This document shows positions 3,109 through 50,337 of a DNA stretch of 64,000 bases, piece by piece. Position numbers and translations under genes: made by a program. Origin of the DNA: Ignavibacteria bacterium (lineage in GTDB: Bacteria > Bacteroidota > Ignavibacteria > UBA10030 > F1-140-MAGs086). Numbering within the stretch: position 1 is the stretch's first letter; every line of letters begins with the position of its first letter. The stretch is taken from positions 10,141 to 74,140 of the forward strand of contig VGWC01000001.1 in the NCBI GenBank assembly GCA_016873775.1, in the 5' to 3' direction. A model generated the notes under the pieces. The model made no database searches, was not told the origin of the DNA, and saw only the letters and a list, made by a program, of their open reading frames with translations.

Positions 3109-3134
3109 ACTCTTGAAACAGAAATTTTCCAAAA

Positions 3135-4803: not shown

Positions 4804-4850
4804 ACAATTCTGTTTCGCAGATTTTAAAAAAAATTCAACTATTTGTTTTT

Positions 4851-16537: not shown

Positions 16538-16788
16538 ATATCTCGTTCATTCAGTTCTTTCAACTCATCTATTTCTTTCAAATATTCGAACACGCGGTTT
16601 GCTTCGTCTTTATCTACTTTGCTGATAGCAAATCCTACGTGAACAATCACAAAATCATCAACCGTTGCATCAGGAACATACGAAAGATTTACTTCTTTTA
16701 TTATTCCGCTGAAATTTACTTTTCCTGTTCGTTGCAACGGTTCGTCGTTCGTGATGCTTTCAATTTTTCCTGGAATTGCGAGACACAT
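16534..16788 (-). CDS. hypC: Hydrogenase maturation factor HypC.
   Basis: N-terminal MCLAIPGKI, size 84 aa, and a start that overlaps the hypD stop. Confidence 0.85.
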
Positions 16789-16808
16789 TTTCGATTTCAG
16801 ATTTCAGA

Positions 16809-19094: not shown

Positions 19095-19744
19095 TTCTTA
19101 ACAATCTTTGAACGAAGCCATTCGCACCATTGGGAAATTCCCTTGTTGTTCATGCACGAAATTTCAAACACCAACAGTCTCGGATTGATGCGCAACGCAT
19201 TGTTTTTCAGCAATGTAATATCGAATTGCAAATGCGGAAGCAAATCCGTTTTGTTGATGAGCAAAACCGCTGCGGTACGAAATATTGCAGGATATTTCAA
19301 AGGTTTGTCTTCGCCTTCGGTTACACTGACGACGACGACTTTGAACGTTTCTCCTAAATCGTACGCCGCAGGACAAACAAGATTTCCGACATGTTCGATG
19401 ATAAGCAATTCTGTCGTTTCAAAAGAAATATTTTTCAGCGCATCCTGAATCAATTTCGCATCAAGATGGCACGCGCCGTTGGTGACGATTTGCACAACGG
19501 GAATATGGTGTTTTGCAATTCGTTGCGCATCGAAATCGGTTTGTACATCTCCTTCTATTACACTCACGGAAATACTTCCTTTCCAATATTCCAATGACTT
19601 TTCAAGAATACTTGTTTTTCCCGAACCCGGAGAACTGATGATGTTGATGACAAAAATGTTGTTTGCCTCAAACAACTTGCGGTTTTGTTGTGCAAGTTCA
19701 TCATTTTTTTCAAGAATTTTTCGTTCAATGGTAATAACACTCAT
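19091..19744 (-). CDS. hypB: Hydrogenase nickel-incorporation GTPase HypB.
   Basis: P-loop 'SSPGSGKTS' and the HypB-type GTPase layout. Overlaps the hypF start by 4 nt. Confidence 0.9.
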   Translation of the reverse strand: MSVITIERKILEKNDELAQQNRKLFEANNIFVINIISSPGSGKTSILEKSLEYWKGSISVSVIEGDVQTDFDAQRIAKHHIPVVQIVTNGACHLDAKLIQDALKNISFETTELLIIEHVGNLVCPAAYDLGETFKVVVVSVTEGEDKPLKYPAIFRTAAVLLINKTDLLPHLQFDITLLKNNALRINPRLLVFEISCMNNKGISQWCEWLRSKIVKK

Positions 19745-20103
19745 ACGTTTTTTTTCGTTTGTTCAAACATTTCGATTTCTACAATGTTCATTTCCGTCCC
19801 CGAGAGAATTTCACAATTCGTGCTTGCGCAGAAAGAGCAAACATTCATCCCGAATTCATTGGAAGATTTTTTTTTACACACATTGCAATACACTTCAAAC
19901 GGAATTTTTTGAATGACGAGGTTCGCGTTGTTCAATGGTGTATTATTCACGATGACGGAAAAAGAAAACGCTAATGATTCTGCGGCAACTCCCGAACATT
20001 CGCCAACAACAGTTTTCACATTCGTAACATTATGCAAATCGTTTTCGTGAACGTGTTGATGTATGATTTCTACGATATTCTGTGCAAGCGAAAGTTCGTG
20101 CAT
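19741..20103 (-). CDS. hypA: Hydrogenase nickel-insertion protein HypA.
   Basis: 'MHELSLAQNIVEI' N-terminus with a CxxC…CxxC zinc site (CNVCKKK…CSFCAS). The ATG at 20103 is the likely start; the track ORF begins at 20145. Confidence 0.8.
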   Translation of the reverse strand: MHELSLAQNIVEIIHQHVHENDLHNVTNVKTVVGECSGVAAESLAFSFSVIVNNTPLNNANLVIQKIPFEVYCNVCKKKSSNEFGMNVCSFCASTNCEILSGTEMNIVEIEMFEQTKKNV

Positions 20104-20197
20104 ACGTTGTAATGAACAAGAGTTTCTCTCAAAATTTGCGCTCAATAAAAAAATCTTTTAGCAAAGTAAAAAACGTTTCAATGGTCTCTGTAAAAAA

Positions 20198-22121: not shown

Positions 22122-22427
22122 TTATTTTTCTTCCACTTCTCCGTAGAACAGCGTAACCAAATCTGAGGCAAAACTCATCAAATCTTTTGCTGTGGCGCGT
22201 CCTTCGGGAGATGCGTTAGAAGCGTTCATTGCGTCTATCGAATCGAAATACATTTCGGCGTGAAGATAATATTTGCTATCACCAATCGGCGCACCGCTAA
22301 TGCGCGTGATTTCGAGTTTCCGAAGTCCAGGCATTTTCAGCACTAAGGGTGTGTGGATGGAATCGTAATGTTCGTCGAATTCTTTTACGTTTTGTGGCTT
22401 TCGATAGAGCGCAATAAATTTTACCAT
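22122..22427 (-). CDS. EthD-family small protein (about 101 aa).
   Basis: 'MVKFIALYRKPQNVKEFDEHYDSIHTPLVLKMPGLRKLEITRI…YYLHAEMYFDSIDAMNASNASPEGRA' resembles EthD-family proteins. The internal ATG at 22427 is the likely start; the track ORF begins at 22529. Confidence 0.55.
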   Translation of the reverse strand: MVKFIALYRKPQNVKEFDEHYDSIHTPLVLKMPGLRKLEITRISGAPIGDSKYYLHAEMYFDSIDAMNASNASPEGRATAKDLMSFASDLVTLFYGEVEEK

Positions 22428-22540
22428 AATTTCTTTGAAAATTTGAACGTGAATATACTCCACTTTATGAAGACATAAAAATTTTGTATTCAATTTATTA
22501 ATTCTTTTCTTTTGGAAAGAAAATATCAAGGAATTTTTAT

Positions 22541-23218
22541 ATGAGTACCTTTTACCGACAATTATTTTTCGTACAATTGATTTTCATTGTATGTGTTTCA
22601 CTCCCCTTTGCTCAACCGAAAGCAAAAGCGCCTGTGCCGCAATTCAACGTGAACGCAAGCGATTTTGCGTTTCGTATAGCAGGAACAAATTATGCTTCGT
22701 GGACGGAATACAAAAAAACGAAACGTCACAAAGAATATTTTCAGTTTTTAGACAGCGTCGCTGCACGATTTACCGTTCGCGTTCCGTTAAAAGATTATTC
22801 GTACGACGAGAGAAAAAAACTTTCAACAATACGCACGGAGCCGGCGGAATTTCTTTTTGAAGCAGAAGAAGAAATAAAACTGCGGCTCATCGTGGAACAG
22901 TTCACGATTAAAAGCGATTCCTTGCTGATGAATTTAGTCGTGAAAAAAGACGTTCTGACATATCTCAACGTTAGCGGAATATTTGTCAGCGCCGCAATCA
23001 GCGAAGTGCAAGCAACACCGCGCGAAAAACGAAAAGTTGTTCGTCTTACGCTGAACGAAGTAAAAGTTGAACAATCGCAGAACACCACGGAAGATTTTTA
23101 CGTGTGGAAAACGCAATCGCGATTGTTCAACCGCATCGGCGATATTATCGAGCAAAAACGCTGGAGCGATGGATTTGATTTAGCCGGAATGGGTTTTCGG
23201 TCGGTTACGGAACGATGA
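22541..23218 (+). CDS. Secreted hypothetical protein.
   Basis: N-terminal signal peptide (LFFVQLIFIVCVSLPFAQP), 225 aa, no recognised domain. It is the first gene of a same-strand run that ends with the giant adhesin. Confidence 0.4.
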   Translation: MSTFYRQLFFVQLIFIVCVSLPFAQPKAKAPVPQFNVNASDFAFRIAGTNYASWTEYKKTKRHKEYFQFLDSVAARFTVRVPLKDYSYDERKKLSTIRTEPAEFLFEAEEEIKLRLIVEQFTIKSDSLLMNLVVKKDVLTYLNVSGIFVSAAISEVQATPREKRKVVRLTLNEVKVEQSQNTTEDFYVWKTQSRLFNRIGDIIEQKRWSDGFDLAGMGFRSVTER

Positions 23219-23262
23219 TGCTTTTCATATTGTTCTTCTTCCGTCAATAACATAGTTCACTG

Positions 23263-26200
23263 ATGGATTATTCGCACATACATACAATTTTTCTTCAACG
23301 GATTATTGATGTTCGCAAGAAAGAAAACCAAACTGTTTTTTTGTTCGGTTTGTTCCTCTTGTTAATTACGTCTGTATGTTCGATCGCGGTCGTATCGCTG
23401 CTCGAAGAATTATTTCATTTCGGAACAATCATTCGCGGTATCTTCTTTTTTTCTGCGCTTGTCATTATTCTTGCCATAGCGATAAAATTTTTCTTTCCGC
23501 CACTGCTTCGAATGCTAAACATTGCAGAAAATAAAAATGAAGAACTGCTTGCAGAACAAATCGGAAGTTTTTTCCCGCAAATAAGAGACAAACTTTACAA
23601 TGCGCTGCAATTAATTCAAGAGCGGAAACAAATTTCTGCTCTCTATTCTCCCTTGCTCATTGATGCATCCCTGAACGATTTGTATCAAGAAGTGCAATCG
23701 GTCAATTTTCTTCGGTGTATTGATACAACCAAACTGAAAAAAATCCGCAAACAATTTTATCTCTCGCTTGCGCTTGTTTGCGTACTTTTTCTTTCATCGC
23801 CAACAAGTTTTCTTTCCGCATTTACACGCATCCTACATTTTCAACAAACGTACGATGCGCCGCCCCAATTTGTCATACGCATTGAACCTGGAAATAAAGA
23901 AATCGTGCGCGGCGAAAGTATTCCGATAACTGTTTCCATCGAACAACGGGAAATTTCTTTTACCAGTTTCGAAAGAAAAACACTTACCTTGTTCAAACGT
24001 CTGCAAGGACAGGTGAATTATGAATCACAAATTCTCAGAGCAAATGCCAACGGAATGTTCACTTCCGAATTTTCCGTCGTAAAATCGCCGACGTTTTACT
24101 TTGCAGAATTTCACGATGTGCGAAGCGATGAGTATGTAATTACAGTTGTAGATAAGCCGCTGATTCGTTCGTTTCGGATAAACGTAACACCGCCGCGTTA
24201 TACGAAACTTCCAAAGAAAGAACTGGAAGAAAATGTTGGCGATGTTGCAGAATACAAAGGAACGAACATCTCGTTTGAACTAACATCGAGCAAAGAATTA
24301 CAACACGCAACTCTCCTCTTTTCAGATTCGAGTACGGTTCCTTTGAAAATCAATAGGAAAAAAGCGGAAGTATCATTTCTTTTGTTTGCAACACAAAATT
24401 ATCATTTCCGCATTGAAGATGTGGACAAACTTTTCAATGATAACCCGATTGAATATCGTCTTACGGTGATTCCCGATGAAATTCCAACGGCAGCAATCAT
24501 TGTTCCTGGGAAAAATATAGACGCAGATGAATCAATGCAACTCGAAATGCTTTTTCGGTTGAGCGATGATTTCGGTTTTACGAAATTACACCTTGCGCAA
24601 AAACTTGTTCATTCGAAATATTCTGCGTCGGAGGAAAATTTTCACTTCATTCCAATTCCATTCTCTTCTTCTGTAAAGCAACGGGAATTTCCATATCGTT
24701 GGAATTTTACCGGACGCAACCTTGCGCCGGAAGATGTGCTTATGTATTATATCGAAGTATTCGACAACGATAATGTTTCGGGACCGAAATCGGGAAAGAG
24801 CCAAACGTATTTATTGCGTTTGCCTTCGCTCGATGAAGTATTTGCAGAAGCGGAACAGCAACAGAATGAAACACTCGAATCGCTTTCGAGCGCATCGCAA
24901 CAAGCGCAGCAGTTACGAAAAGAACTGGAGAAACTTCAGCAGGAATTGAAAAAACGTCCCGATAAAGTGGATTGGTTGCAAAAGAAAAAAGCGGAAGAGT
25001 TGGCGAAAAAATATGACGAAGTCAAACAAAAAGTCGCAACCGCCGCGCAACAGATGAAGCAAGCGGAACAGCATCAATTACTCTCGCCACAAACGATGCA
25101 AAAGTATGATGAGTTGCAAAAAATGATGAAAGAACTCGATTCGCCGGAATTTCGTGAGTTACTGAAAAAATTGCAACAGCAGCATCAGCCGCTTTCTCCA
25201 GAGCAAATGAAAGAAGCGATGAAAAATTTTTCGATGAACGAAGAACAATTTCGGAAAGCACTAGAACGAATGTTGGAATTGCTGAAGCGAATGGCGATGG
25301 AGCAAAAATTGGACGAACTCATCAAACGTACAGAAGAGGCAATCAAACAACAAAAAAAATTACAAGAGGAAACGCAAAACAGTTCGAAAGAAAAATTGAA
25401 TGAACTTTCGAAACAGCAAAGCGATTTGGAAAAACAAACGGATAAGTTGGAGCAGGAAGCAAAAGAACTTGCAGAAAAAATGGAAGAACTCGCCGACGAA
25501 ATGCCTGCGGATAAAATGGAACAGGCGAATGAACATTTCGAAAAAAATAATCCGCAACAACAGATGAAGAATGCGCAGCAGCAAATGAAAAGCGGACAAC
25601 AACAGCAAGCGCAACAAAGTCAGCAGCAAGCGCGGCAATCGTTGGAACAATTTCTTTCCGAATTGCAACAGGCGCAAAAAGAAATGCGCTCCAAACAACA
25701 GCAACAAATCGTTCGAGAAATGCAAAAGCAGTTGGAAAATGTTCTGGCAGTTTCCAAAAATCAGGAACAATTGAAAAATGAAACACAGCAATTGGAATAT
25801 AACTCTCCGCGTTTTCGGGAAAATGCGCAGAAACAATATGCGATGAATAATGATGTTCAGAATATTGCCAATGCTCTTTCGGAACTTGGGAAAAAATCGT
25901 TTTCCATTTCACCGGAAATGGGAAAAACACTTGGCGATGCTATGAAACAAATGGAATCGGCAATGAATGGAATGGAAGCGAGAAATGCGCAATCGTCTAC
26001 GCAGCAACAAAACGCCGCAATGGGTTCACTTAATCGCGCCGCGGCGATGATGCAAAAATCGTTACAAGGAATGCAAGGAAGCGGAGGCGGTGGAATGGGA
26101 ATGCAGGGAATGATGCAAGCGATGGGACAAATGGCTTCTCAACAACAGGGAATCAACGAAGGAACGCAAGGAGCGTTGGGACAAGGAAACGGAATGTCAA

Positions 26201-26661
26201 TGGAACAAGCTGCGGCAATGTCGAAACTTGCACAGCAACAATCCGGGTTGCAAAAATCGTTGCAGGAACTTGCGGGAGAATCGAAACGCTCCGATGAAAT
26301 GAGCAGACTTCTTGGCGATTTGGATTATATTGCAAAAGAAATGCAGGAAGTAGTGCGCGATATGGAGCAAGGAACTGTTAATCCCGAAACACTTCGCAAG
26401 CAGGAGAGAATTTTATCGAGACTTTTGGATTCGCAGCGTTCGTTGCGAGAAAAAGATTACGAAAAACGAAGACGCGCGGAACAAAGTAATGTTACTGCAC
26501 GACCTTCGCCGATAGAACTTGATATGCAGTCGCTGGAAGGAAAAAATAAATTGCAGCAGGATTTATTGAAAGCGTTGAATGAAAAGTATACGAAAGACTT
26601 TGAATCGTTAATCCGAAAATATTTTGAGGAGTTGCAGAAACAAGAAAGCAAACCTCAGTGA
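23263..26661 (+). CDS. Large membrane-anchored coiled-coil protein with a Gln/Lys/Glu-rich low-complexity region (DUF4175-like architecture).
   Basis: Three or four N-terminal TM helices, a β-rich region of about 400 aa, then about 600 aa of K/E/Q-rich heptad-like sequence including 'QQQMKNAQQQMKSGQQQQAQQSQQQARQ' and Gly/Met-rich 'MQGSGGGGMGMQGMMQAMGQMASQQQG'. The many antisense ORFs across this stretch are low-complexity artefacts. Confidence 0.5.
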   Translation: MDYSHIHTIFLQRIIDVRKKENQTVFLFGLFLLLITSVCSIAVVSLLEELFHFGTIIRGIFFFSALVIILAIAIKFFFPPLLRMLNIAENKNEELLAEQIGSFFPQIRDKLYNALQLIQERKQISALYSPLLIDASLNDLYQEVQSVNFLRCIDTTKLKKIRKQFYLSLALVCVLFLSSPTSFLSAFTRILHFQQTYDAPPQFVIRIEPGNKEIVRGESIPITVSIEQREISFTSFERKTLTLFKRLQGQVNYESQILRANANGMFTSEFSVVKSPTFYFAEFHDVRSDEYVITVVDKPLIRSFRINVTPPRYTKLPKKELEENVGDVAEYKGTNISFELTSSKELQHATLLFSDSSTVPLKINRKKAEVSFLLFATQNYHFRIEDVDKLFNDNPIEYRLTVIPDEIPTAAIIVPGKNIDADESMQLEMLFRLSDDFGFTKLHLAQKLVHSKYSASEENFHFIPIPFSSSVKQREFPYRWNFTGRNLAPEDVLMYYIEVFDNDNVSGPKSGKSQTYLLRLPSLDEVFAEAEQQQNETLESLSSASQQAQQLRKELEKLQQELKKRPDKVDWLQKKKAEELAKKYDEVKQKVATAAQQMKQAEQHQLLSPQTMQKYDELQKMMKELDSPEFRELLKKLQQQHQPLSPEQMKEAMKNFSMNEEQFRKALERMLELLKRMAMEQKLDELIKRTEEAIKQQKKLQEETQNSSKEKLNELSKQQSDLEKQTDKLEQEAKELAEKMEELADEMPADKMEQANEHFEKNNPQQQMKNAQQQMKSGQQQQAQQSQQQARQSLEQFLSELQQAQKEMRSKQQQQIVREMQKQLENVLAVSKNQEQLKNETQQLEYNSPRFRENAQKQYAMNNDVQNIANALSELGKKSFSISPEMGKTLGDAMKQMESAMNGMEARNAQSSTQQQNAAMGSLNRAAAMMQKSLQGMQGSGGGGMGMQGMMQAMGQMASQQQGINEGTQGALGQGNGMSMEQAAAMSKLAQQQSGLQKSLQELAGESKRSDEMSRLLGDLDYIAKEMQEVVRDMEQGTVNPETLRKQERILSRLLDSQRSLREKDYEKRRRAEQSNVTARPSPIELDMQSLEGKNKLQQDLLKALNEKYTKDFESLIRKYFEELQKQESKPQ

Positions 26662-26802
26662 AATCAAAAAATTCAACGGTAATTTCATTGTTTATGGAAA
26701 AAATATTTTATATAATTCTATAAGTTTTTATTCAATTATATTATTTCAACAAGATATTCTTCATTTTTACTTTTTTCTTCTTTTTCGAAAGGAATCTTTT
26801 TT

Positions 26803-29800
26803 ATGATGCCGATGATACAGCGTTCTCTTCTTATAGATCTTCACTATTCAAAAATTCTCTCAAGACTGATTGTTATTTTCTTCATTTTCCCGATAATTGT
26901 TTTAGCACAATCAACTTCGTGGAAAGGAAACGGAACAACTGCTTGGAATACAGCAAGCAACTGGACCAATGGCGTTCCCAATAGCGGTGTTGATGCTATC
27001 ATTGGAGATGCAAATATGGTGGGAACAACGCAACCAACGATAAATACCACTTCCGCTTCGTGCAACAATCTAACTATTGGAAACGAAACAGTGCCTTCCA
27101 CTCTTACAACCGGAAACAACAATTTTTCGGTTTCAGGTAATGTAACGATAGGCGCAAACGGTACACTTGTTCACAGTGCGACAAGCGGAACCCGAATATT
27201 ATCCGTGAGTGGGAACTGGATTCAAACGGGAGCATATACAGCCGCTAATGCAGTTGCTACTGTTTCATTTGAATTACCAGCAACGATGAGCGGTTCCGGT
27301 CCATTTAAAACAGTTGTAACGAATGATTCCATTGCGTTGCTATCCAATATTACAGTTAATACATCGCTGACAATGAATGGAACATTCGAACCAAATTCGT
27401 TTGCTGTTTTGGGAAGTGGTTCGCTGAATTTATACGGAACGTTATACATCAATGCTTCCACGTTCGCAGGAAATATTTCTTTGAGCGGAACGAAAACTCT
27501 GGAACCGTTGAGTATTGTTCACTATAACGCTTCAACAGCAAATCAAACCATTGATAATTCGTTGAGTTATGCAGTATTAAATCTTGCAGGTGGAATGACA
27601 AAAACAGCAGGAGGAAATCTTACCGTTACAGAAGATTTGTATCTCCTTGAAGGAACTCTTAATTTATCAACGTTCACCGCAAATGGCGGAGGAGGAATAT
27701 TGGACATTGCAGAAAATACTTCTCTGAACATCGGCGGAACAAATTCGTTTCCTTCAGGATATGGAAATATTACCATAGATGTTGCAAGTACTGTTGAATA
27801 CAACGGAACGAATCAAACAGTTGCTGCACAAACGTACGGAAATCTCACTTTGAGCAACGCCGGCGCGACGGTTACAAAAACTCTTCCTTCATCTTCAACT
27901 ACTATTGAAGGAAACTTGATTCTAAACAATGGTTCTGGAACTTCACTAACGGCAAACGCAAATAATGCTCTGAATATTTCCGGAAACGTTACAATTGGAA
28001 ACGGTTGCACTCTGAACGGAAGTAATTATTCTCACAATGTTTATGGTAATTGGACTAACAGCGGCACATATAATTCATCAGCAAATGGTGCAGTAACTTT
28101 CAACGGCTCCAATACAACATTGAGCGGGAACGGAACAAATAATTTTTACGATGTGAATTTTTCCGGAAACGGAATTTCCACTTCTTCTTCTACAAATATT
28201 TCCGTCTCAGGAAATTTCACTTCCAATCCAGGCGCATCTTTCACCCATATAAGCGGAGGAGTCGGAACAGTTTCATTAACCGGAACTTCAAAAAGTATCA
28301 GTGGTTCATTGATTAAATTCAATCATTTATCGCTTTCAAGTTCGTATACCACCTCCAGTTCGTTTTCTATCGCAGGAAATTTAACAGTGAACGGTTCATT
28401 TTCTGCTACAAGCGGCGCAGTTACATTTTCCGGAACATCCATTCTTTCAGGAACAGGAACAATCAATTTCTATGATGTAACGGTAAGCGGAACACTTACA
28501 TTAGCTGCGAATACAACGCTTGGGATTGCGGCGACGCTTTCAACTTCTTCGGAAAATTTTAACGCAACTTCCAATACTCCCAACACGGTAAAATTCAACG
28601 GAACAGGAGCGCAAAACATTCCCGCGCTTACAGTTTACAATTTACAATTTGAAGGCGGTGGAACAAAAACCGTAACAGGAAATCTTTCTCTTCACAATGA
28701 TTTTACAATTGGAAATTCCGTGAGTTTCGACGTGGCTTCCTACGCACATTCCATTGCAGGAAGTATTTCCAATTCGGGAACAATGTTAGAAAATACGTCC
28801 ACGATGACAATGACAGGTGCAGGAAAAACAATTTCCGGAAGCGGAGTAACTTCGTTTCATTCGTTCATTATCAGTGTTACGGGAAATATTACTGCAACGC
28901 AAAATTTTAGTATTACAGGTAATTTGACGAATAACGGAACATTTTCCAATTCTGCAAATACCGTTACTTTCAGCGGTTCTGAAAATGCAAATATCAACGG
29001 AACAACTTCGCCGACTTCGTTTAATGCGATAGCAATTTCAAAAATCGGCGGCGCTTCCGTTGCACTGGGAATGAACATTTCCGATTTAAGTTCACTCAAT
29101 ATTTCCAGCGGAATTTTAAAACTTTCATCGTTTTCTGTTTCACAAGCAGGCGGTGGCGGAATACTCACAATCGGAAGCGGAGCAACGTTAACGATTGGCG
29201 GTTCCAATTCCTTTCCAACATTTAATGCGTACAGTATTTCAACTTCCAGCACTGTTGAATATAATGGAAACGGTACGCAAACAATTTCGGCAAAAAATTA
29301 CGGAAATCTAACCAGTAGCAATTCCGGAAATCGTATTCTTGCTTCCAGCGGAATAATCGGTATTGCAAAAGCGTTTGACCCCGGTTTCAATTCGTTCACT
29401 ATTACCGGAAGCACGATAGAATTTAACGGCTCAGGTACTCAAACAATTCCAGCGTTCAATTATAATAATCTCACAAGCACAGGAATCGGGGAACGCGTGT
29501 TTGCTTCCGGCGGAACAATCGGAATTGCAGGTACCTTTACAAAAGGAACAAATTCGTACTCGACAACAAATAGTACAATAGATTTTAATGGAAGTACACA
29601 AGTAATTCCTTCTCTTACGTATAACAATCTTGCAACAAGCGGAAGCGGCACAAAAACTCTTAGTGGAAATGTAACAGTGAACGGAACGCTTTCTCTTACT
29701 TCCGGAAGTTTCGCTGATGGAGGATTTACGGTAACCGCAAACGGCAATGTTGAAAATGACGATGCGCATACCGGTTCAGGAAAAATTTTGCTTTCGGGAG

Positions 29801-32800
29801 GAACTGCAGAACATGAAATTTCCGGCAATGGCCCGTTCACTAATCTCCACGTCAATGATACCAATGGAGTTCTTGCGGCTTCCGATATTACAGTGAATGG
29901 AACGCTTACTCTCTCAAACGGGAATATTACTACAAATACGAATAAAGTTATTATCAATTCGACCGGTTCTGTTTCGCACACAAGTGGGCACGTCATCGGG
30001 AATTTAGAAAAAGCAATTTCAGCAGGAAACTCTTCAAAGACGTTTGAAATTGGAAAGGGTAGCAATTACTTGCCCGTTTCTCTTTCGTTCAATAATGTTT
30101 CAACTTCCGGAAAACTTACTGTTAGCACAACCAACGGCGACCATCCGAATATTGCAACTTCTAATGTTCGTTCCGATAAAAGCGTGAATCGTTTCTGGAG
30201 TTTGGCAAACAACGGAATTGCACTCACTTCGTACGATGCCGTTTTCAATTTTCTTTCTACGGATGTTGATGCAAGCGCAAACACGAATAGTTTTATTGTT
30301 CAAAGTTACGACGGAAGTTCGTGGAATACGCATACTGTTGGAACAAAAACAGGAATGTCAACGCAAATACTTAGCTCAACGTCGTTCAGCGATTTTCAAA
30401 TCGGCGAACAAGTGGATAATCCAGTTCCATCAACAACAAGTATTTCTCCAACAACAAAAAATGTCGGTGATGCGGAATTTACACTTACGGTAAGTGGAAC
30501 AAATTTCATCAATGTTTCCGTCGTACGATTGAACGGTTCTGATAGAGCAACAACATTTATCAACAATTCGCAACTTGAAGCAACAATTCCCGCAAGCGAC
30601 TTGTTGAATCCAGGAAATTACAGCATCACGGTTTTTAACCCGGCGCCTGCAGGTGGAACTTCCAATGCGCAAACGCTAACGATTATAGGCGGTTCAATCA
30701 GTGGTGTGAAATTTAACGATACAAACGGAAACGGCGCAAAAGATAACGGAGAAGCGCTTCTTGCAAATTGGGTAATCAATCTTTCGGGAAAGTCAACTGC
30801 TTCCGATACAACCGATGGAAGCGGCGCATTTTCTTTCAGCAATCTTTCTGCGGGTTCGTACACTATTAGTGAAGAGTCGCAAAACGGATGGATGCAAACG
30901 CTTCCGCTTTTCGGTGGGAATTACAACATCAATGTTGGCGCTTCTACAATCGTTTTTTCCGACTATAATTTCGGAAATTTTCAATTTGGTAGTATGAGCG
31001 GAACCAAATTCAATGATACAGACGGCGATGGAATGAAAGAAGTCGGAGAAGTTGGTTTAGAAAACTGGAAAATAAAAATCTCAGGTCCAATGAATGATTC
31101 TGTATTTACAGATGCGAACGGAAATTATACGTTTTCAAATTTAATTGCCGGAACATATACTGTGAGTGAAATTGTACAAAGCGGATGGGTGCAAACTTTT
31201 CCTTCATTACCGGGGACTCATTCTGTTCTTATCAACAGCGGAACAAATTACACAGGAAAAAATTTTGGAAACTTTCAACTTGGCTCGATTGCCGGCGTGA
31301 AATTCAATGACACCGATGGTGATGGAATAAAAGATGTTGGCGAACCTTTGCTTGAAAACTGGCGCATTCGTCTTTCGGGAGCAAAAACAGATTCGATGCT
31401 TACGAATGCTTTGGGACAATATTCCTTCACGAGTTTAGGTCCCGGAAATTATACAGTCAGTGAAGCAGTGCAAAACGGTTGGTCGCAAACATCTTCACCA
31501 ACGTCGTTTTCCATTACGATGTTGAGCGGCGATGTGAACATTGATAAGGATTTTGGCAATTTTCAACTCGGAACAATTTCAGGAAATGTTTTCAACGATA
31601 TTGATGGCGATGGCGTTCGGGAATTTGGTGAAAGCGGTTTGCAATCGTGGAAAATAAAAATCACTGGTCCTCGCATTGATTCTGTAACAACAGATGCGAA
31701 CGGAAATTATTTGTTCACAAGTTTATCTGCCGGAAATTATTCTTTATCCGAAGTTGTGCAAAGCGGTTATGTGCAAACAACATCACCGACAACGCTTTCC
31801 GTTACAATTACAAGTGGAACTATTTCAACCAACAGCGATTTTGGGAATTTTCATCTTGGTTCCGTAAGTGGAATAAAATTCAACGACGCAAATGGAAACG
31901 GCGCAAAAGATGGCGGCGAAGTTGGATTGCAGAATTTCAGAATAAAAATTTCCGGCGCAATCAATGATTCTGTTCTTACGGATGCCAATGGAAATTATTC
32001 ATTCACAAATTTAAACGTCGGAACGTACACGCTCAGCGAAGTGCAGCAAAACGGATATATTCAAACGATGCCGCCAAATCCCGGTACGTATTCAGTGAAT
32101 ATTCAAAGTGGAACAAATGCAGTGAATAAAGATTTCGGAAACTTTATGCAAGGAGAAATCAGTGGTTTGAAATTCAATGACGTGAATGGAAACGGCGCTC
32201 AAGATGTTGGTGAAAACGGACTTCAAAACTGGAAAATAAAAATTTCCGGTCCTCAAAATGATTCCGTTCTTACTGATGCAAATGGAAATTATTCGTTTGT
32301 GAATTTATCTGCGGGAACATACACCGTGAGCGAAGTATTGCAAAGCGGATGGATGCAAACGTTTCCAACATCTCCTTCAACGTATTCAGTAAATATAAAC
32401 AGCGGAACCAATGCAGCGAATAAAAACTTCGGCAATTTTCAATACGGAAGTGTGAGCGGTGTTGTGTTCACCGATACTGATGGTGACGGAACCAACGATG
32501 CGGGCGAAAACGGTCTCGAAGGATGGCGCGTTCGTTTGTCAGGAACACGCACGGATTCGACGTTGACAAACGCAAACGGAAATTATTCGTTTGGAAATCT
32601 CACTGCGGGAAATTATACGGTGAGCGTTGTAGTACAAAACGGATATGTGCAAACTGTTCCCGTTTCTCCGTCAACATTTTCCATTTCCGTACAAAGTGGA
32701 AGCAGTTTTTCGAATAAAGATTTCGGAGAATTTCAACTTGCAACTATCAGCGGAATGAAATTTAATGACCTCAACGGCAACGGTACAAAAGACGGAAACG

Positions 32801-35301
32801 AAACAGGAATTTCTAATTGGAAGATTCGACTTTCGGGAGCAACATCTGATTCAACATTTACTAACGCCGGAGGAGATTATTCGTTTGGAAATTTAACTGC
32901 GGGAAATTACACTGTGAGCGAAGCATCGCAAAACGGATGGATGCAAACTGCGCCTTCACCACTGGGAACTTATTCGCTATCTATTTCCAGTGGAAATAAT
33001 TTGAGTGGAAATAATTTTGGGAACTTTCAACTCGGAACCATTGCCGGTTTGAAATATAATGACGTTACCGGAAACGGTGTTCGCGATGCGGGAGATTCCA
33101 ATCTTTCCGGATGGACGGTGTATTTATTCAGTCCCGATACATTGACGCTTATAGATTCCGCCGTAACTGCCGACGACGGATATGTATTCACCGATTTGCC
33201 GAAAGGAACATATTTCGTTCGGGAAAAATTACAAAGTGGATGGATTCGAACAAGCGCAAATCCTTCTGCAATTTCGATGACGAGTGGTTTCAATTCGGGA
33301 AGTGTGAACTTCGGAAATTTTCAACTTGGAAGCATTAGCGGAACAAAATTTAACGACCTTGATGCTGATGGAACGAAAGATAACGGAGAGCCGGGAGTTG
33401 CAAACTGGAAAATTAAAATTTCCGGTATTGTTACCGATTCTGTTCTTTCCAATGCGAATGGAAACTATACATTTGCAAACCTAACATACGGAAATTATAC
33501 CATCAGTGAAGAATTGCAAGGTGGATGGTTTCAAACATATCCGCCGACACCGGGAACATATTCACTTCTTGTTGAAAGCGGAAGCAATTTAACTGGAAAA
33601 GATTTTGGAAATGTAACGCTTGGCTCAATTAGCGGAACGTTATTTAACGACACTGATGGCGATGGAACAAAAGATGGAAACGAAGTCGGTTTGCAGGATT
33701 GGAAAATCAAACTTACCGGCGCTAAAACCGATTCCGTGATAACGGATGCCAACGGATACTATATTTTTACGAACATTACTTCCGGCGGTTATATTGTAAC
33801 GGAAGAATTACAAAACGGATGGACACAAACGCTACCTGCAAATGCTGGAAATTATACATTGAATCTTGCAAGTGGCGAAAATGCAACGGGAAAAGATTTC
33901 GGAAATTTTCAAAACGGTACAATTTCCGGAATGAAATTCCTCGACATCAATGGCAACGGAACGAAAGACGAAAACGATGGTGGGTTGTCGGGATGGAAAA
34001 TTAAAATCAGCGGAGCCAAAGCAGATTCGACAACTACGGATGCAAATGGAAACTATGCGTTCACGAATTTACTTGCAGGAAATTATACCGTGAGCGAAGT
34101 TCAACAAGCAGGATGGGCGCAAACATTACCTGCAAATAACGGTTCGTATCTTGCTTCAATTTCAAGCGGAACATCAGTGAATAATTTAATCTTTGGCAAC
34201 TTTCCCGGATTAGCAAAATACCGAACGTTTAAAGCGACAACGGATATTTCTTCAAAACCGAATAAGATGAAATACAAGGGAGGATTGCTTACGGTAAAAC
34301 CGAATATTGCAACAGCAGTGGAAAATGTTTTCAAGAAAATCGGAAAAGCAGGAACAACATTTCTTGGTGTTCCACAAGTTTTGAAAGATTCGGCGAAAAA
34401 ATACGGATGGATATTTTTCAAAAAAGCAGGTGAATTAGCAAAACTCTATACAAGCGCGCACAACGCAACAACCTATCCGATTGACTATCTTCGTATTCCC
34501 GGAAAATCGAATAAGAAACTTGTAAAAGCAATCAAACCTTCGCGAGTAATTTACGACAATCCCGCGTGGGAACAAGGCGTGCTTTTCCGTTTGAATATTA
34601 TTGCTAGTGACACGGGGATTACCGTTGATACAAACGCTCCCGGTCGCCGTTTCGGAAGTTTGATTTTGGATACGTCGCATACGCTATTCGGAAAACAATT
34701 GCAAGGAATGGCGCTTCGGGATATTGCCAACTATTTTGATACGTTAATGACGTACTGGGATAGATTGAATATCAAATCCACTACGGAATACACGCAAATC
34801 AATAATTGTATTTCAGCAATAATCAAACCGTTAAACGAACGATTTGCAACAACATTCGATAGTACAAATTATATTGTTGATTCTCTCGGTATTGTTGTTA
34901 GCAAAAATCCCTATGCTGTGCGAATGACAGGATATAAAACTGCGTCGGAAATCGGAATGGTTAAGGAATTACCGAGTAGCAAATCGAACGGAAATTTTGT
35001 TCCTACTGTTGGTTATGATGAAATACCATCGGAGTTTTCTCTCCTGCAAAATTATCCGAATCCGTTTAATCCGACAACCACGATAGCGTTCAACATTCCT
35101 GAACAAACACTTATTACGTTGAAAATCTATAATGTAGTTGGCGAAGAAATTGCAATGCTTCTTGATGAAATGGAGTTTGATGCAGGAACGCATGAAATAG
35201 AATTTGACGCTTCATATTTATCCAGCGGCGTGTATTTCTATCGCTTGTATGATGCGAACGGAACATTCGTTGCAACGAAGAAATTACTTTTGTTGAAGTA
35301 A
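26803..35301 (+). CDS. Giant (2832 aa) T9SS-secreted surface protein. It combines PATR-like β-helix repeats, an IPT/TIG domain, 12 tandem SdrD-B/Cna-B-like domains and a type-A T9SS C-terminal sorting domain.
   Basis: Signal peptide. N-rich '…GNLT.S…T.TL.G' passenger-associated repeats. IPT-like 'SISPTTKNVGDAEFTLTVSGTNF…ITVFNPAPAGGTS'. Twelve repeats of about 97 aa with consensus 'GNFQLG.ISG.KFND.DG(D/N)G.KD.GE.GL.NWKIK.SG…DS..TDANGNY.F.NL.AG.YT.SE..Q.GW.QT.P'. C-terminal 'NYPNPFNPTTTIAFN…LKIYNVVGEEIAMLL…GVYFYRL…KKLLLLK'. Confidence 0.85.
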   Translation: MMPMIQRSLLIDLHYSKILSRLIVIFFIFPIIVLAQSTSWKGNGTTAWNTASNWTNGVPNSGVDAIIGDANMVGTTQPTINTTSASCNNLTIGNETVPSTLTTGNNNFSVSGNVTIGANGTLVHSATSGTRILSVSGNWIQTGAYTAANAVATVSFELPATMSGSGPFKTVVTNDSIALLSNITVNTSLTMNGTFEPNSFAVLGSGSLNLYGTLYINASTFAGNISLSGTKTLEPLSIVHYNASTANQTIDNSLSYAVLNLAGGMTKTAGGNLTVTEDLYLLEGTLNLSTFTANGGGGILDIAENTSLNIGGTNSFPSGYGNITIDVASTVEYNGTNQTVAAQTYGNLTLSNAGATVTKTLPSSSTTIEGNLILNNGSGTSLTANANNALNISGNVTIGNGCTLNGSNYSHNVYGNWTNSGTYNSSANGAVTFNGSNTTLSGNGTNNFYDVNFSGNGISTSSSTNISVSGNFTSNPGASFTHISGGVGTVSLTGTSKSISGSLIKFNHLSLSSSYTTSSSFSIAGNLTVNGSFSATSGAVTFSGTSILSGTGTINFYDVTVSGTLTLAANTTLGIAATLSTSSENFNATSNTPNTVKFNGTGAQNIPALTVYNLQFEGGGTKTVTGNLSLHNDFTIGNSVSFDVASYAHSIAGSISNSGTMLENTSTMTMTGAGKTISGSGVTSFHSFIISVTGNITATQNFSITGNLTNNGTFSNSANTVTFSGSENANINGTTSPTSFNAIAISKIGGASVALGMNISDLSSLNISSGILKLSSFSVSQAGGGGILTIGSGATLTIGGSNSFPTFNAYSISTSSTVEYNGNGTQTISAKNYGNLTSSNSGNRILASSGIIGIAKAFDPGFNSFTITGSTIEFNGSGTQTIPAFNYNNLTSTGIGERVFASGGTIGIAGTFTKGTNSYSTTNSTIDFNGSTQVIPSLTYNNLATSGSGTKTLSGNVTVNGTLSLTSGSFADGGFTVTANGNVENDDAHTGSGKILLSGGTAEHEISGNGPFTNLHVNDTNGVLAASDITVNGTLTLSNGNITTNTNKVIINSTGSVSHTSGHVIGNLEKAISAGNSSKTFEIGKGSNYLPVSLSFNNVSTSGKLTVSTTNGDHPNIATSNVRSDKSVNRFWSLANNGIALTSYDAVFNFLSTDVDASANTNSFIVQSYDGSSWNTHTVGTKTGMSTQILSSTSFSDFQIGEQVDNPVPSTTSISPTTKNVGDAEFTLTVSGTNFINVSVVRLNGSDRATTFINNSQLEATIPASDLLNPGNYSITVFNPAPAGGTSNAQTLTIIGGSISGVKFNDTNGNGAKDNGEALLANWVINLSGKSTASDTTDGSGAFSFSNLSAGSYTISEESQNGWMQTLPLFGGNYNINVGASTIVFSDYNFGNFQFGSMSGTKFNDTDGDGMKEVGEVGLENWKIKISGPMNDSVFTDANGNYTFSNLIAGTYTVSEIVQSGWVQTFPSLPGTHSVLINSGTNYTGKNFGNFQLGSIAGVKFNDTDGDGIKDVGEPLLENWRIRLSGAKTDSMLTNALGQYSFTSLGPGNYTVSEAVQNGWSQTSSPTSFSITMLSGDVNIDKDFGNFQLGTISGNVFNDIDGDGVREFGESGLQSWKIKITGPRIDSVTTDANGNYLFTSLSAGNYSLSEVVQSGYVQTTSPTTLSVTITSGTISTNSDFGNFHLGSVSGIKFNDANGNGAKDGGEVGLQNFRIKISGAINDSVLTDANGNYSFTNLNVGTYTLSEVQQNGYIQTMPPNPGTYSVNIQSGTNAVNKDFGNFMQGEISGLKFNDVNGNGAQDVGENGLQNWKIKISGPQNDSVLTDANGNYSFVNLSAGTYTVSEVLQSGWMQTFPTSPSTYSVNINSGTNAANKNFGNFQYGSVSGVVFTDTDGDGTNDAGENGLEGWRVRLSGTRTDSTLTNANGNYSFGNLTAGNYTVSVVVQNGYVQTVPVSPSTFSISVQSGSSFSNKDFGEFQLATISGMKFNDLNGNGTKDGNETGISNWKIRLSGATSDSTFTNAGGDYSFGNLTAGNYTVSEASQNGWMQTAPSPLGTYSLSISSGNNLSGNNFGNFQLGTIAGLKYNDVTGNGVRDAGDSNLSGWTVYLFSPDTLTLIDSAVTADDGYVFTDLPKGTYFVREKLQSGWIRTSANPSAISMTSGFNSGSVNFGNFQLGSISGTKFNDLDADGTKDNGEPGVANWKIKISGIVTDSVLSNANGNYTFANLTYGNYTISEELQGGWFQTYPPTPGTYSLLVESGSNLTGKDFGNVTLGSISGTLFNDTDGDGTKDGNEVGLQDWKIKLTGAKTDSVITDANGYYIFTNITSGGYIVTEELQNGWTQTLPANAGNYTLNLASGENATGKDFGNFQNGTISGMKFLDINGNGTKDENDGGLSGWKIKISGAKADSTTTDANGNYAFTNLLAGNYTVSEVQQAGWAQTLPANNGSYLASISSGTSVNNLIFGNFPGLAKYRTFKATTDISSKPNKMKYKGGLLTVKPNIATAVENVFKKIGKAGTTFLGVPQVLKDSAKKYGWIFFKKAGELAKLYTSAHNATTYPIDYLRIPGKSNKKLVKAIKPSRVIYDNPAWEQGVLFRLNIIASDTGITVDTNAPGRRFGSLILDTSHTLFGKQLQGMALRDIANYFDTLMTYWDRLNIKSTTEYTQINNCISAIIKPLNERFATTFDSTNYIVDSLGIVVSKNPYAVRMTGYKTASEIGMVKELPSSKSNGNFVPTVGYDEIPSEFSLLQNYPNPFNPTTTIAFNIPEQTLITLKIYNVVGEEIAMLLDEMEFDAGTHEIEFDASYLSSGVYFYRLYDANGTFVATKKLLLLK
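30690..34205 (+). repeat. Array of 12 tandem repeats of about 290 bp encoding SdrD-B/Cna-B-like domains inside the giant adhesin. Conserved at protein level, diverged at DNA level.
   Basis: Repeat starts recognised at GSISGVKFND, GSMSGTKFND, GSIAGVKFND, GTISGNVFND, GSVSGIKFND, GEISGLKFND, GSVSGVVFTD, ATISGMKFND, GTIAGLKYND, GSISGTKFND, GSISGTLFND and GTISGMKFLD, spaced about 290–295 nt apart. Confidence 0.75.
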
Positions 35302-35405: not shown

Positions 35406-36656
35406 TTATTTTGGCAATGTAATTCGAAACGTTGTACCTTTTCCGGCTTTGCTTTCAACGAGTTCCAGTTTTCCTTTGTGATACATTTCAATAATTCGCT
35501 TTGAAAGCGTAAGTCCCAATCCCCATCCTCGTTCTTTCGTGCTGTAACCTGGACGAAACACTTCTTTTCTGTGTTGCGCAATAATTCCTTTTCCTGTATC
35601 AGCGACATCAATGCAAAGTACTTTGTTGTTTCCTTCGAGCGAAAATGTGATGCTTCCGTTTTTTGTTTCAATGGCGTCAATAGCGTTCTTTACAAGATTT
35701 TCAAACACCCATTCAAGAAGTTCACGATTGACGCGAGCAAGAGCTTCTCCGCTGTGATGAAGTTGAAACGCAACTTGTTTTCCTGCGCCAAATCGTGTAG
35801 AAGTGTTGATACGTTTCTGAAAATATTCAACAATCGTTTGAATAATTTCGAGAATGTTTTCTTCTTTTAAATTCGGCTTCGAACCGATTTTTGAAAATCG
35901 TTCGGCAACTTTATTGAGCCGCTGAATATCATTTTCCATTTCGGAAATTGTTTCTAACGCTTTTTCCCGCTCATCCGTATCGCGTTGCAACTGCGATTTG
36001 ATGATTTCCAACCATCCCATCATACTCGAAAGCGGCGTTCCGAGTTGATGCGCCGTTTCTTTTGACATTCCCACCCAAATACTGCTTTGTTCATTTCGTT
36101 TTAAATAACTGAACCCGAAATATGCAAGCAAAACAAACATCGCGCCGAGACTTATTTCGACATACGGAAGTTGTTGAAGTTGCACAATCATTTTTCGAAT
36201 ACTGATAATCGTGTGAGATTCGCTGTAATGAATTTCGCTCACGACCAGTGTTTCTTGATAAACAATTTTGATGGGAGGATTCTGTTCGTCCATTTTCTTC
36301 ACCAGTTGACGCAAAAAAAATGTTTGGGCAGAATCCGAAAGAGCGGAATCCAATACTACATTGCGATACGATTTAATAACATTTCCCGAAGCATCAGTTT
36401 CGATAAGCGGAAAATCAATGGCGGAAATTATTTTATCAAACAGAAATTCAAAATCGGTGGGCGTTTCGCTGTTTGCAACGTGTTCAATCGTTTTGGCGTA
36501 GAGATTTGCAACTTTTTGTTCATCGCGCAGAAGTTGGTGAACGATTGTTTGCAAATTTGTTACGATATATTGCGAGTAATAGAGAATGCCAAGCACCAAT
36601 ATAAATGCTACGGCAAGCAAGAAGAATTTGATGTTTGTGGAGCGAAGGCCGCGCAT
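35406..36656 (-). CDS. Sensor histidine kinase (HisKA + HATPase_c) with an N-terminal TM. Orphan: no cognate response regulator is adjacent.
   Basis: H-box 'HQLGTPLSSMMGWLEI', N-box 'LVKNAIDA', G-boxes 'DTGKGI' and 'GWGLGL'. Confidence 0.85.
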   Translation of the reverse strand: MRGLRSTNIKFFLLAVAFILVLGILYYSQYIVTNLQTIVHQLLRDEQKVANLYAKTIEHVANSETPTDFEFLFDKIISAIDFPLIETDASGNVIKSYRNVVLDSALSDSAQTFFLRQLVKKMDEQNPPIKIVYQETLVVSEIHYSESHTIISIRKMIVQLQQLPYVEISLGAMFVLLAYFGFSYLKRNEQSSIWVGMSKETAHQLGTPLSSMMGWLEIIKSQLQRDTDEREKALETISEMENDIQRLNKVAERFSKIGSKPNLKEENILEIIQTIVEYFQKRINTSTRFGAGKQVAFQLHHSGEALARVNRELLEWVFENLVKNAIDAIETKNGSITFSLEGNNKVLCIDVADTGKGIIAQHRKEVFRPGYSTKERGWGLGLTLSKRIIEMYHKGKLELVESKAGKGTTFRITLPK

Positions 36657-50305: not shown

Positions 50306-50337
50306 TTTTACTGAACAAATTTTCGGAGGTTCTTTTT

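Follow-up and report, generated by a model that had tools for sequence, protein, structure and literature searches.

The DUF4175 family consists of proteins with N-terminal membrane helices followed by a long, low-complexity extracytoplasmic region rich in Gln and Gly, and the model TIGR02302 is that of its alphaproteobacterial 'low-complexity' membrane proteins. Both DUF4159 and DUF4175 accompany operons with MoxR, DUF58 or VWA (Bat-like) genes. A literature search on the two families returned nothing on the function of the one to which the membrane protein discussed here, g2, belongs. For the cargo of the type IX secretion system (T9SS), a series of steps has been established in Porphyromonas and Flavobacterium, namely, transport by Sec, translocation by the T9SS, removal of the C-terminal domain (CTD) and linkage of the product to the cell surface. 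No paper was found that combines type IX secretion with SdrD.

Representatives of both types of protein occur side by side in the window, i.e., the whole stretch of 64,000 nucleotides (64 kb) of Ignavibacteria DNA that was analysed. According to the ORF listing, three consecutive ORFs, all on the plus strand, encode g1 (225 aa, 22541..23218), g2 (1132 aa, 23263..26661) and g3 (2832 aa, 26803..35301), and the run is bounded by two genes of the opposite strand, an EthD gene on the g1 side (22122-22529, minus strand) and a histidine kinase gene on the g3 side (35406-36656, minus strand). The preliminary description had the same three ORFs and the correct gap of 141 nt between g2 and g3; the gap between g1 and g2, given there as 45 nt, measures 44 nt. 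Minus-strand ORFs such as 25343-25930 and 29460-30065 lie wholly inside g2 and g3, and they were treated as shadow ORFs, the host genes having homologues. The run quite probably consists of two functionally separate neighbouring units, one formed by g1 and g2 (Unit A) and the other by g3 (Unit B).

g2 is a predicted inner-membrane protein of the DUF4175 family, as the Pfam model PF13779 matches aa 308-522 with 51.7 bits (cut-off 27.3, E = 5e-14), the match being partial and covering model positions 190-394 of 825. NCBIfam, TIGR02302 included, gave nothing at E ≤ 0.01 for g2, P0014 and P0049. In the AF2 model, which has a mean pLDDT of 78, the N-terminal part (aa 1-191, 23263..23835, plus strand) contains three membrane helices, at 3-51, 55-84 and 156-191, around a small helical domain (aa 93-152), and hydropathy places hydrophobic segments at aa 22-52, 50-87 and 165-188. 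The small domain is probably cytoplasmic, judging from the positive-inside rule. It is followed by three tandem β-sandwich domains of the Ig/FN3/MG-like type (aa 203-519, 23869..24819, plus strand), which overlap the DUF4175 match and bear the family-invariant acidic motifs DDFGF and EVFDNDxVSGPK; Foldseek aligned this region with tandem Ig/FN3/macroglobulin arrays, which are generic matches. The rest of the model (aa 523-1129, 24829..26649, plus strand) consists of about 600 aa of long helices, a length conserved family-wide. In this part, Q makes up 16% of the residues, E 12% and K 10%; there are QQQ(Q) runs, and the tract at aa 930-980 is rich in G, M and Q. By sequence, g2 matched only designed or natural coiled coils in the PDB, which amounts to coiled-coil noise. 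Hydropathy, AF2 and Pfam thus agree on the DUF4175-like protein of the preliminary description, with TM helices and about 600 aa of coiled coil containing poly-Gln and Gly/Met tracts.

g2 resembles DUF4175/TIGR02302 proteins in its N-terminal membrane helices and in its long, predicted extracytoplasmic region that ends in Gln/Gly-rich low-complexity sequence. Unlike the alphaproteobacterial TIGR02302 proteins, it represents a distinct subfamily of the Fibrobacteres-Chlorobi-Bacteroidetes (FCB) group with a conserved length of about 1100-1140 aa. This type has 105 full-length homologues of that size in Ignavibacteria, Marinimicrobia, Balneolaceae, Saprospiraceae and Fluviicola, and 23 of the 105 carry a precomputed PF13779 annotation.

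The genomic setting of the family was obtained by scanning GTDB species genomes with a 9-sequence alignment as query, which yielded 520 confirmed stretches, and the best 80 loci of these were fetched. Full-length g2 homologues occupy 83 distinct loci in Ignavibacteria and allied phyla. A DUF4159 gene (about 225 aa) is found upstream in 75 of the 83, and in at least 62 it is directly adjacent (position -1), with a median gap of 16 nt, so that a secreted DUF4159 partner is strongly conserved in Ignavibacteria-like lineages. In Bacteroidota proper, g2 homologues have neither DUF4159 nor an adhesin adjoining, and their neighbours are HATPase_c_2 and YbeY; the other neighbours of the family vary (YjbQ, an ECF sigma/anti-sigma pair, an M14 peptidase, TPR and SurA-like proteins). 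MoxR, DUF58 and VWA genes were seen near the pair neither in the representatives of ten recurrent neighbour clusters nor in the annotated contexts. No assembly is represented twice among the best 80 loci, which indicates that g2 is a single-copy orthologue and not an adhesin-dedicated paralogue.

g1 (22541..23218, plus strand), in the position held elsewhere by DUF4159, is the orphan of the run. Its hydrophobic N-terminus followed by PFA|QPK points to a putative signal peptide (aa 1-24, from hydropathy and sequence), in line with the small secreted protein proposed before. It has no family in Pfam or NCBIfam, and its relatives amount to only 5 clusters among 5.8e9 proteins and, in a profile search, to 4 representatives among 1.84e9, with no remote relatives found; g1-type proteins are present only where the adhesin is present. 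The AF2 model, built on a 5-sequence alignment, is mostly β with a pLDDT of 45, too poor for a fold search.

In position, strand, size (225 vs about 224 aa) and signal peptide, g1 is like the DUF4159 member of the pair; its gap to g2 is short, and a naive alignment brings out short common strings (AFRIAG..W / AFKIARLKY..GGGDW; SDGFD / SDGWD). g1 might then be a DUF4159 orthologue diverged past recognition, in which case Unit A would be an unaltered DUF4159-DUF4175 module and the clade of the window would not be special. However, an HMM made from 77 DUF4159 sequences did not match g1 even at E ≤ 10, the profile-profile comparison with hhalign returned a probability of 2.5-2.6%, the alignment being confined to the signal peptide or to a stretch of 35 columns, and the motifs GGGDWYND, MTGHG and DDDYG, invariant in DUF4159, are absent from g1. 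Moreover, DUF4159 is assigned in Pfam to a clan whose families are glutamine-amidotransferase-like (PMC4702930), for which reason an α/β fold is expected of it, whereas the low-confidence model of g1 is mostly β. Divergence of this kind is unlikely, and g1 was rejected as a Pfam DUF4159 member after the Pfam, custom HMM, hhalign and motif tests. The replacement of DUF4159 by g1 is a minor curiosity.

In the explanation with two separate units, Unit A would be the form that a core FCB-group envelope gene takes in this lineage. Three helices would hold g2 in the inner membrane, and some 950 aa are predicted to lie in the periplasm, first the Ig-like domains and then the Q/E/K-rich helices. In most Ignavibacteria-like genomes, the g2 homologue is translationally close to the secreted DUF4159, and g1 stands there in the clade of the window. 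g2 may therefore be seen as a housekeeping periplasmic scaffold that would work with a small secreted partner. The gain from this part of the analysis is that the DUF4175-type protein can be described as a length-conserved FCB-group gene, present once per assembly in the 80 fetched loci, with a defined architecture of three TM helices, three Ig-like domains and a 600-aa helical region; Ignavibacterium album and Melioribacter roseus are cultured carriers of the DUF4159-DUF4175 pair and are usable for its study.

A more specific role is conceivable, in which g2 and its partner are part of the machinery of cell division or envelope growth, and the adhesin was inserted beside them without any relation to it. 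In 9 loci the genes are arranged as ftsQ-ftsA-ftsZ-DUF4159-DUF4175, FtsZ lies less than 10 kb away in 16 of the 83, and AdvA, an essential division protein of Acinetobacter, is annotated as DUF4175 (PMC7481262). Yet the linkage with the dcw (division and cell wall) genes concerns about 20% of the loci, possibly from related lineages, and is absent in the window. As for AdvA, its DUF4175 match lies in the first ~200 residues, beside two predicted TM helices (PMC7481262), whereas that of g2 falls on model positions 190-394, the β-sandwich part, hence probably on a different part of DUF4175; because the two matches probably do not overlap, no homology follows, and the link of AdvA with g2 was set aside. 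A division role appears distinctly unlikely on this evidence.

The third gene encodes a 2832-aa type A T9SS cargo (g3, 26803..35301, plus strand), which is a putative giant adhesin-type surface protein. Its signal peptide (aa 1-35, 26803..26907, plus strand; hydrophobic aa 14-41) has a VLA|QST cleavage site assigned by eye. The following 1165 aa (aa 36-1200, 26908..30402, plus strand) are made of β-strand repeats with 15% S, 15% T, 12% G and 12% N, and they are likely to form the distal head, which is probably β-helical. No Pfam match (E ≤ 10) or NCBIfam match (E ≤ 0.01) was obtained for aa 1-1200, and the head has no match in the PDB by sequence. The PATR repeats assigned to g3 in the preliminary description could not be substantiated, as neither PF12951 nor TIGR02601 was found, whether in the whole protein at E ≤ 0.01 or in the scans of aa 1-600 and 601-1200 with Pfam and of aa 1-1200 with NCBIfam. 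The relatives of the N-terminal region number at least 264, for the most part Bacteroidota proteins of about 2080 aa that end in a T9SS domain, and most relatives of the head, among the matches listed, carry PF18962. These are named 'beta strand repeat-containing protein' or 'T9SS type A sorting domain-containing protein' by NCBI, and several are named 'fibronectin-binding autotransporter adhesin' by JGI.

The remaining modules of g3 are better defined. An IPT/TIG domain (aa 1209-1293, 30427..30681, plus strand) was recognised by PF01833 with 39.3 bits (cut-off 20.9, E = 6.4e-10) when aa 1201-1300 were scanned alone, and is absent from the whole-protein scan; the NCBIfam choice-of-anchor Z repeat, NF058597, covers aa 1207-1294 with 102.8 bits (cut-off 30, E = 7.8e-30). 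Then comes an array of 12 tandem Cna-B-type domains of 96-99 aa (aa 1299-2471, 30697..34215, plus strand), for which SdrD_B (PF17210) scores 426 bits over 12 stretches (E = 5e-130), and 10 of the 12 contain the motif N-D-x-[DNT]-[GA]-[DN]-G. Directly ahead of the CTD lies a domain of about 270 aa that is Lys-rich and not repetitive (aa 2479-2745, 34237..35037, plus strand), and the giants of the related loci L001 and L006 have it too; it gave no Pfam match at E ≤ 10 (aa 2561-2746) and no PDB match. The protein ends in a type A T9SS C-terminal sorting domain (aa 2751-2832, 35053..35298, plus strand), to which PF18962 (Por_Secre_tail) and TIGR04183 both match at aa 2751-2827, the former with 36.7 bits (cut-off 27, E = 5e-9) and the latter with 31.4 bits (cut-off 23, E = 1.4e-7). 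The IPT/TIG domain, the 12 SdrD_B domains and the T9SS CTD named earlier are all borne out by profile matches. Three short-read assemblies break off inside g3, at about aa 2596-2757.

The 12 SdrD_B units share on average 52% protein identity (36-72%) and 59% DNA identity (46-72%), and identical residues use the same codon at a frequency of 0.52, where codon usage would predict 0.44. DNA words shared by the repeats reach 23 nt at most, and Tandem Repeats Finder reported one pair only. From sequence comparison, then, the repeats are old, with synonymous sites near saturation, and these values uphold the idea that they have diverged as DNA. In the orthologue of g3 at L001, which shares 48% identity with it across some 2000 aa, the SdrD_B domains number only 6, from which it follows that the length of the stalk is free to vary.

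Proteins of this kind are frequent in the window, where six genes, g3 included, encode PF18962 T9SS cargo, a density of about 1 gene in 8. One of them (59975-63997, minus strand) encodes another giant, in which a T9SS domain is combined with at least 12 SdrD_B domains, and is flanked by Band_7 and patatin-Omp85 genes, with no DUF4175 gene adjoining. None of the families of the T9SS machinery (SprA/Sov, PorV, PorU, GldKLMN) was found among the Pfam-scanned ORFs of the 64-kb window; the five PF18962 proteins besides g3 imply that the host would have an active T9SS. The architecture had been called unusual, a view that does not hold given the at least 264 relatives of the head, most of those listed with PF18962, and the recurrence of SdrD_B with T9SS at 59975-63997 (minus strand), L001 and L006.

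The neighbourhood data also bear on the suggestion that g2 is a dedicated anchoring or export accessory of the adhesin. Among the 83 loci, a giant with SdrD_B and T9SS domains lies directly downstream of the g2 homologue only in the window, L001 (= L002, L012) and L006, as opposed to the 75 with a DUF4159 neighbour; g2 homologues and giant T9SS cargo are not co-conserved outside this one small clade, and g2 should not carry the annotation 'adhesin accessory'. A narrower version would limit this role to the clade, g1 and g2 having been recruited for anchoring, export or quality control of the downstream adhesin, with the three genes in one operon. The trio is indeed collinear in the three species in spite of different flanking genes, g2 being 60-64% identical among them; g1-type proteins occur only together with the adhesin; at L001 the g1-g2 pair lies between two SdrD_B/T9SS giants on one strand; and the g2-g3 gap has no terminator-like hairpin. 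Nevertheless, the three instances of the trio belong to one clade and so represent a single evolutionary event, and the gene of which g2 is the single-copy orthologue is conserved in length and motifs in about 80 species where no adhesin adjoins it. The giant of L006 has an N-terminal region different from that of g3, so that the supposed client is not conserved, and the other SdrD_B giant of the window (59975-63997) does without g1- or g2-type neighbours. With T9SS cargo at about 1 in 8 genes, adjacency is cheap, and the g2-g3 spacers are A+T-rich and 141-241 nt long, compared with the median gap of 16 nt inside the conserved DUF4159-DUF4175 pair. Recruitment limited to the clade is thus very unlikely.

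The spacer between g2 and g3 in the window (26662..26802, plus strand) is A+T-rich over its 141 nt and has an AGGA Shine-Dalgarno-like motif ahead of the g3 start. No terminator-like hairpin was found on its plus strand, so that transcription could run on from g2 into g3, and the spacer may contain a promoter of g3. The corresponding spacers of the window, L001 and L006 show patchy alignment only. Consensus scans gave 14 promoter-like sites, against 10.2 expected from shuffled sequence, and 10 terminator-like sites, against 6.5; these counts are little above expectation, and operon structure is not decidable from them. The boldest proposal, that in one small Ignavibacteria clade the otherwise universal DUF4175 protein swapped DUF4159 for g1 and became genetically locked to giant SdrD_B/T9SS adhesins, with g1-g2 as a scaffold across the periplasm, repurposed for handling or anchoring T9SS cargo of great length, is the least probable of all. 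If it held, g1-g2 would be the first T9SS accessory that is specific to a cargo and anchored in the inner membrane, and the DUF4175 family would gain a first clue to its function.

The interpretation of the run as two units has to accommodate that the order g1-g2-adhesin is kept in the three species and that the loss of a recognisable DUF4159 coincides exactly with the presence of the adhesin, a coincidence that could reflect functional coupling in the clade. In this interpretation, Unit B would operate on its own: Sec would take g3 to the periplasm by means of its signal peptide, and the T9SS, by analogy with characterised cargo, would recognise the CTD, remove it and link the new C-terminus to the cell surface. 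There, the 12 SdrD_B domains and the TIG domain would act as a stalk that holds the 1165-aa β-strand-repeat head off the cell, a head-stalk-anchor logic as in Gram-positive MSCRAMMs and autotransporter passengers.

Compared with known systems, g2 is an orthologue of the DUF4175 member of the DUF4159-DUF4175 pair of Ignavibacteria, Marinimicrobia, KSB1 and Calditrichota. The locus differs from the pair elsewhere in that g1 is not detectably DUF4159 and in that an adhesin follows only in the clade of the window. The closest relatives of g3 are the β-strand-repeat T9SS giants of Bacteroidota, of about 2075-2090 aa (e.g., P0126 of Marinoscillum, P0127 of Reichenbachiella, P0165 of Fulvivirga and P0189 of Pontibacter), whose heads are homologous to that of g3, with E values down to 1e-141 and 35-41% identity over 55-60% of the query. 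Both have a PF18962 C-terminal domain and a repeat region without a Pfam family, and the precomputed Pfam annotation of the Bacteroidota giants among the matches listed is PF18962 only. Unlike them, g3 reaches 2832 aa, with the TIG domain, the 12 SdrD_B domains and the 270-aa domain between head and CTD.

With the staphylococcal MSCRAMMs SdrC and SdrD, g3 shares tandem SdrD_B domains with Asp/Asn-rich loops and a head-stalk-C-terminal anchor layout. It is not an orthologue of either, scoring 112.5 bits with NF012181 (cut-off 2500) and 79 bits with NF000535 (cut-off 1700); these full-length models fall far below cut-off, so that only the B-type domains are in common. In contrast to the MSCRAMMs, g3 lacks an LPXTG/sortase A signal, an SD-repeat region and an A-domain, and its anchoring would use the T9SS CTD in a diderm cell. 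The resemblance to PATR autotransporter (type V) passengers lies in a repetitive, G/T/S/N-rich and probably β-helical head. Unlike type V autotransporters, g3 has neither PATR (PF12951, TIGR02601) nor a C-terminal β-barrel translocator, none being found in the Pfam and NCBIfam scans, and the T9SS sorting domain occupies its C-terminus; its export would be by the T9SS. The 'autotransporter' and 'Gram-positive' modules are common building blocks with differing anchors that give no sign of an unusual export route, and g3 is, by annotation, a routine T9SS surface adhesin of modular head-stalk-anchor design.

The three plus-strand open reading frames (ORFs) g1 (22541-23218, 225 aa), g2 (23263-26661, 1132 aa), and g3 (26803-35301, 2832 aa) are set apart by opposite-strand genes on both sides, with EthD, enoyl-CoA hydratase and hypA/B/F at the 5' side, and a convergent histidine kinase followed by SecF/SecD at the 3' side. 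This run had been noticed in the preliminary description, whose 141-nt gap between g2 and g3 is correct, while that between g1 and g2 is 44 nt and not 45 nt. G+C content stays at about 0.39-0.41 across the window, without a compositional break, and no terminator-like hairpin was found in the 141-nt A+T-rich g2-g3 spacer. Database proteins identical or nearly identical to those of the window are assigned to an uncultured Ignavibacteria bacterium. Upstream of the run are the hydrogenase maturation genes hypD, hypC, hypF, hypB, and hypA (15446-20145, minus strand), and, on the plus strand at 916-6155, clustered genes for multihaem c-type cytochromes of the c7, c3, and c554 families, with weak MtrC/MtrF-like matches and an interleaved β-propeller protein; these genes may form a module for extracellular or periplasmic electron transfer.

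The match of g2 to Pfam DUF4175 (aa 308-522) scores 51.7 bits, above the gathering threshold of 27.3, which bears out its initial description as DUF4175-like. Hydropathy indicates three membrane segments, and the AF2 model, built with 22 homologues (mean pLDDT 78), consists of two long helices, a small helical domain and a third membrane helix in the N-terminal part, three β-sandwich domains (aa 203-519), and a stretch of long helices that spans about 600 aa (aa 523-1129). This last part contains 16% Gln, numerous QQQ(Q) runs and one Gly/Met-rich tract, so that model and composition agree with the coiled coil originally proposed. Against the PDB, Foldseek matched the model only to generic tandem Ig/FN3/macroglobulin arrays, and the sequence matched coiled coils only.

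There are 105 full-length homologues of g2, very constant in length, from Ignavibacteria, Marinimicrobia, Balneolaceae, Saprospiraceae, and Fluviicola, and 520 relatives were confirmed when one genome of each GTDB species was scanned with a pattern. Neighbourhoods were compared for the best 80 of these 520 loci (L-numbers) with 10-kb flanks, by calling ORFs in all of them and searching these with HMMs built for this analysis; counts refer to 83 distinct loci. Of the 83, 75 have a canonical DUF4159 gene (E around 1e-105; about 225 aa) on the upstream side of the g2 homologue, which it immediately adjoins in at least 62; the median gap is 16 nt. Among the loci that lack it, three are truncated by contig ends. 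No other conserved neighbour was found among the 83 loci. FtsZ is encoded within 10 kb of the DUF4159-DUF4175 pair in 16 of them, and in nine the pair comes directly after ftsQ-ftsA-ftsZ, where the dcw cluster ends (e.g., L003 5724-13420; also L009, L010, L013, L017, L019, and L025, among others). Elsewhere the neighbours are a pair of ECF sigma and anti-sigma factors, an M14 peptidase, and TPR or SurA-like genes. Five loci (L015, L016, L021, L024, and L085) have a gene of about 512 aa between the DUF4159 and DUF4175 genes, which there are about 1.6-1.9 kb apart. Saprospiraceae and Fluviicola (L090 6001-10314 and L091 6001-10214) have a different conserved neighbourhood: no DUF4159 gene adjoins the g2 homologue, and downstream of it, in both, come the genes for a small HATPase_c_2 protein and for YbeY.

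Most economically, the run is read as two units: g1-g2 would be the local form of a core envelope module of the FCB group, and g3 a standard type A T9SS adhesin. The initial suggestion that g2 is a dedicated accessory of the adhesin fares poorly, as among the 83 loci g2 homologues directly precede such giant cargo only in the clade of the window, and elsewhere mostly lie beside DUF4159. An SdrD_B/T9SS giant is directly downstream of g2 only in the window, L001 (one locus with L002 and L012), and L006, exactly the three species in which g2 shares 60-64% identity with that of the window; beyond them identity is at most 47%. An accessory role of g1-g2 survives for this clade only and is improbable even there, its instances amounting to a single evolutionary event. 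None of the best 80 of the 520 loci shares an assembly with another, so that g2 looks like a single-copy orthologue, an argument limited by MAG incompleteness. The g2-g3 spacers of the three clade species measure 141-241 nt and align with one another only patchily, in contrast to the nearly contiguous DUF4159-DUF4175 pair. The adjacency of g2 and the adhesin would then be a clade-specific arrangement in genomes with a very high density of T9SS cargo genes.

The sole oddity of the two-unit run is g1 in place of DUF4159. The clade lacks the DUF4159 gene at this locus, and g1 occupies its position, matching it in size and strand and likewise having a signal peptide. It is an orphan, with relatives in five clusters among 5.8e9 proteins and four representatives among 1.84e9 in a profile search. 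At the sequence level, g1 is not detectably a DUF4159 protein: the custom HMM gave no match at E≤10, hhalign a probability of 2.5%, and the invariant DUF4159 motifs were not found in it. Its AF2 model is of poor quality, and DUF4159 has one solved, uncharacterised relative (PDB 4i66). Hydropathy and the positive-inside rule served to judge signal peptides and topology. Cleavage at the predicted signal-peptidase sites of g1 (PFA|QPK, 22541-22615) and g3 (VLA|QST, 26803-26910) would leave an N-terminal Gln, consistent with the 'Q-rule' described for Bacteroidetes. According to one study (PMC5837995), this rule is not valid across the whole FCB group.

Profile searches confirmed in g3 the 12 SdrD_B domains and the C-terminal T9SS sorting domain, which exceeds both the Pfam and TIGR04183 cut-offs, as well as the IPT/TIG domain (PF01833, E=6.4e-10 in a scan limited to aa 1201-1300), at the same place as an NCBIfam choice-of-anchor Z repeat domain (E=8e-30). 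The autotransporter-type PATR repeats reported at first were not recovered, aa 1-1200 giving no Pfam match at E≤10 and no NCBIfam match at E≤0.01. The SdrD_B array is separated from the C-terminal domain by a further domain (aa 2479-2745; 34237-35037), about 270 aa long, Lys-rich and without repeats. It is common to both L001 giants and the L006 giant, matches no Pfam family and no PDB entry, and could represent an uncharacterised module, functional or anchoring-proximal. Anchored C-terminally, g3 would hold its SdrD_B/TIG stalk near the cell and its β-strand-repeat head outermost.

The array (aa 1299-2471) consists of 12 units of 96-99 aa with mean identities of 52% for protein and 59% for DNA. 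Identical residues use the same codon at a frequency of 0.52, where codon usage alone predicts 0.44, shared DNA words reach 23 nt at most, and Tandem Repeats Finder detected one pair only (75%); the array is therefore old, as had been proposed from its divergence as DNA. The L001 orthologue, 48% identical over about 2000 aa, has six SdrD_B domains, so the number of copies is evolutionarily free. Three independent short-read assemblies of this organism (L086, L087, and L088, which are the window's locus in other assemblies) all stop inside g3, at about aa 2596-2757, probably because sequence near the C-terminal domain is common to paralogues, and the 3' part and repeat count of g3 are accordingly provisional. 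The full-length g3 protein was not among the matches listed in the protein search.

The architecture of g3, at first considered unusual, proved not to be so. Six PF18962 proteins, g3 included, are encoded in the window, and T9SS cargo accounts for about one gene in eight; the T9SS machinery genes lie outside it. The other five are FG-GAP, BNR, M28 peptidase with fn3, and M14 carboxypeptidase proteins (plus-strand PF18962 genes at 46572-48635, 48731-50305, 50212-52521, and 52518-54239) and another giant, with 12 or more SdrD_B domains (59975-63997, minus strand), which the window end truncates. Nearby, an 891-aa protein (56212-58887, minus strand) with patatin-like phospholipase, POTRA, and Omp85 domains has a PlpD-like (type Vd secretion) architecture. 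SdrD_B domains are also combined with a T9SS domain in two proteins of L001 and one of L006. The N-terminal region of g3 has at least 264 relatives, and most of the matches listed, from Cytophagales and other Bacteroidota, are proteins of about 2075-2090 aa with PF18962 at the C-terminal end, named 'beta strand repeat-containing' or 'T9SS type A sorting domain-containing' by NCBI and 'fibronectin-binding autotransporter adhesin' by JGI. The NCBI label 'choice-of-anchor', which we take to denote domains occurring with alternative C-terminal anchors, fits such a modular reuse.
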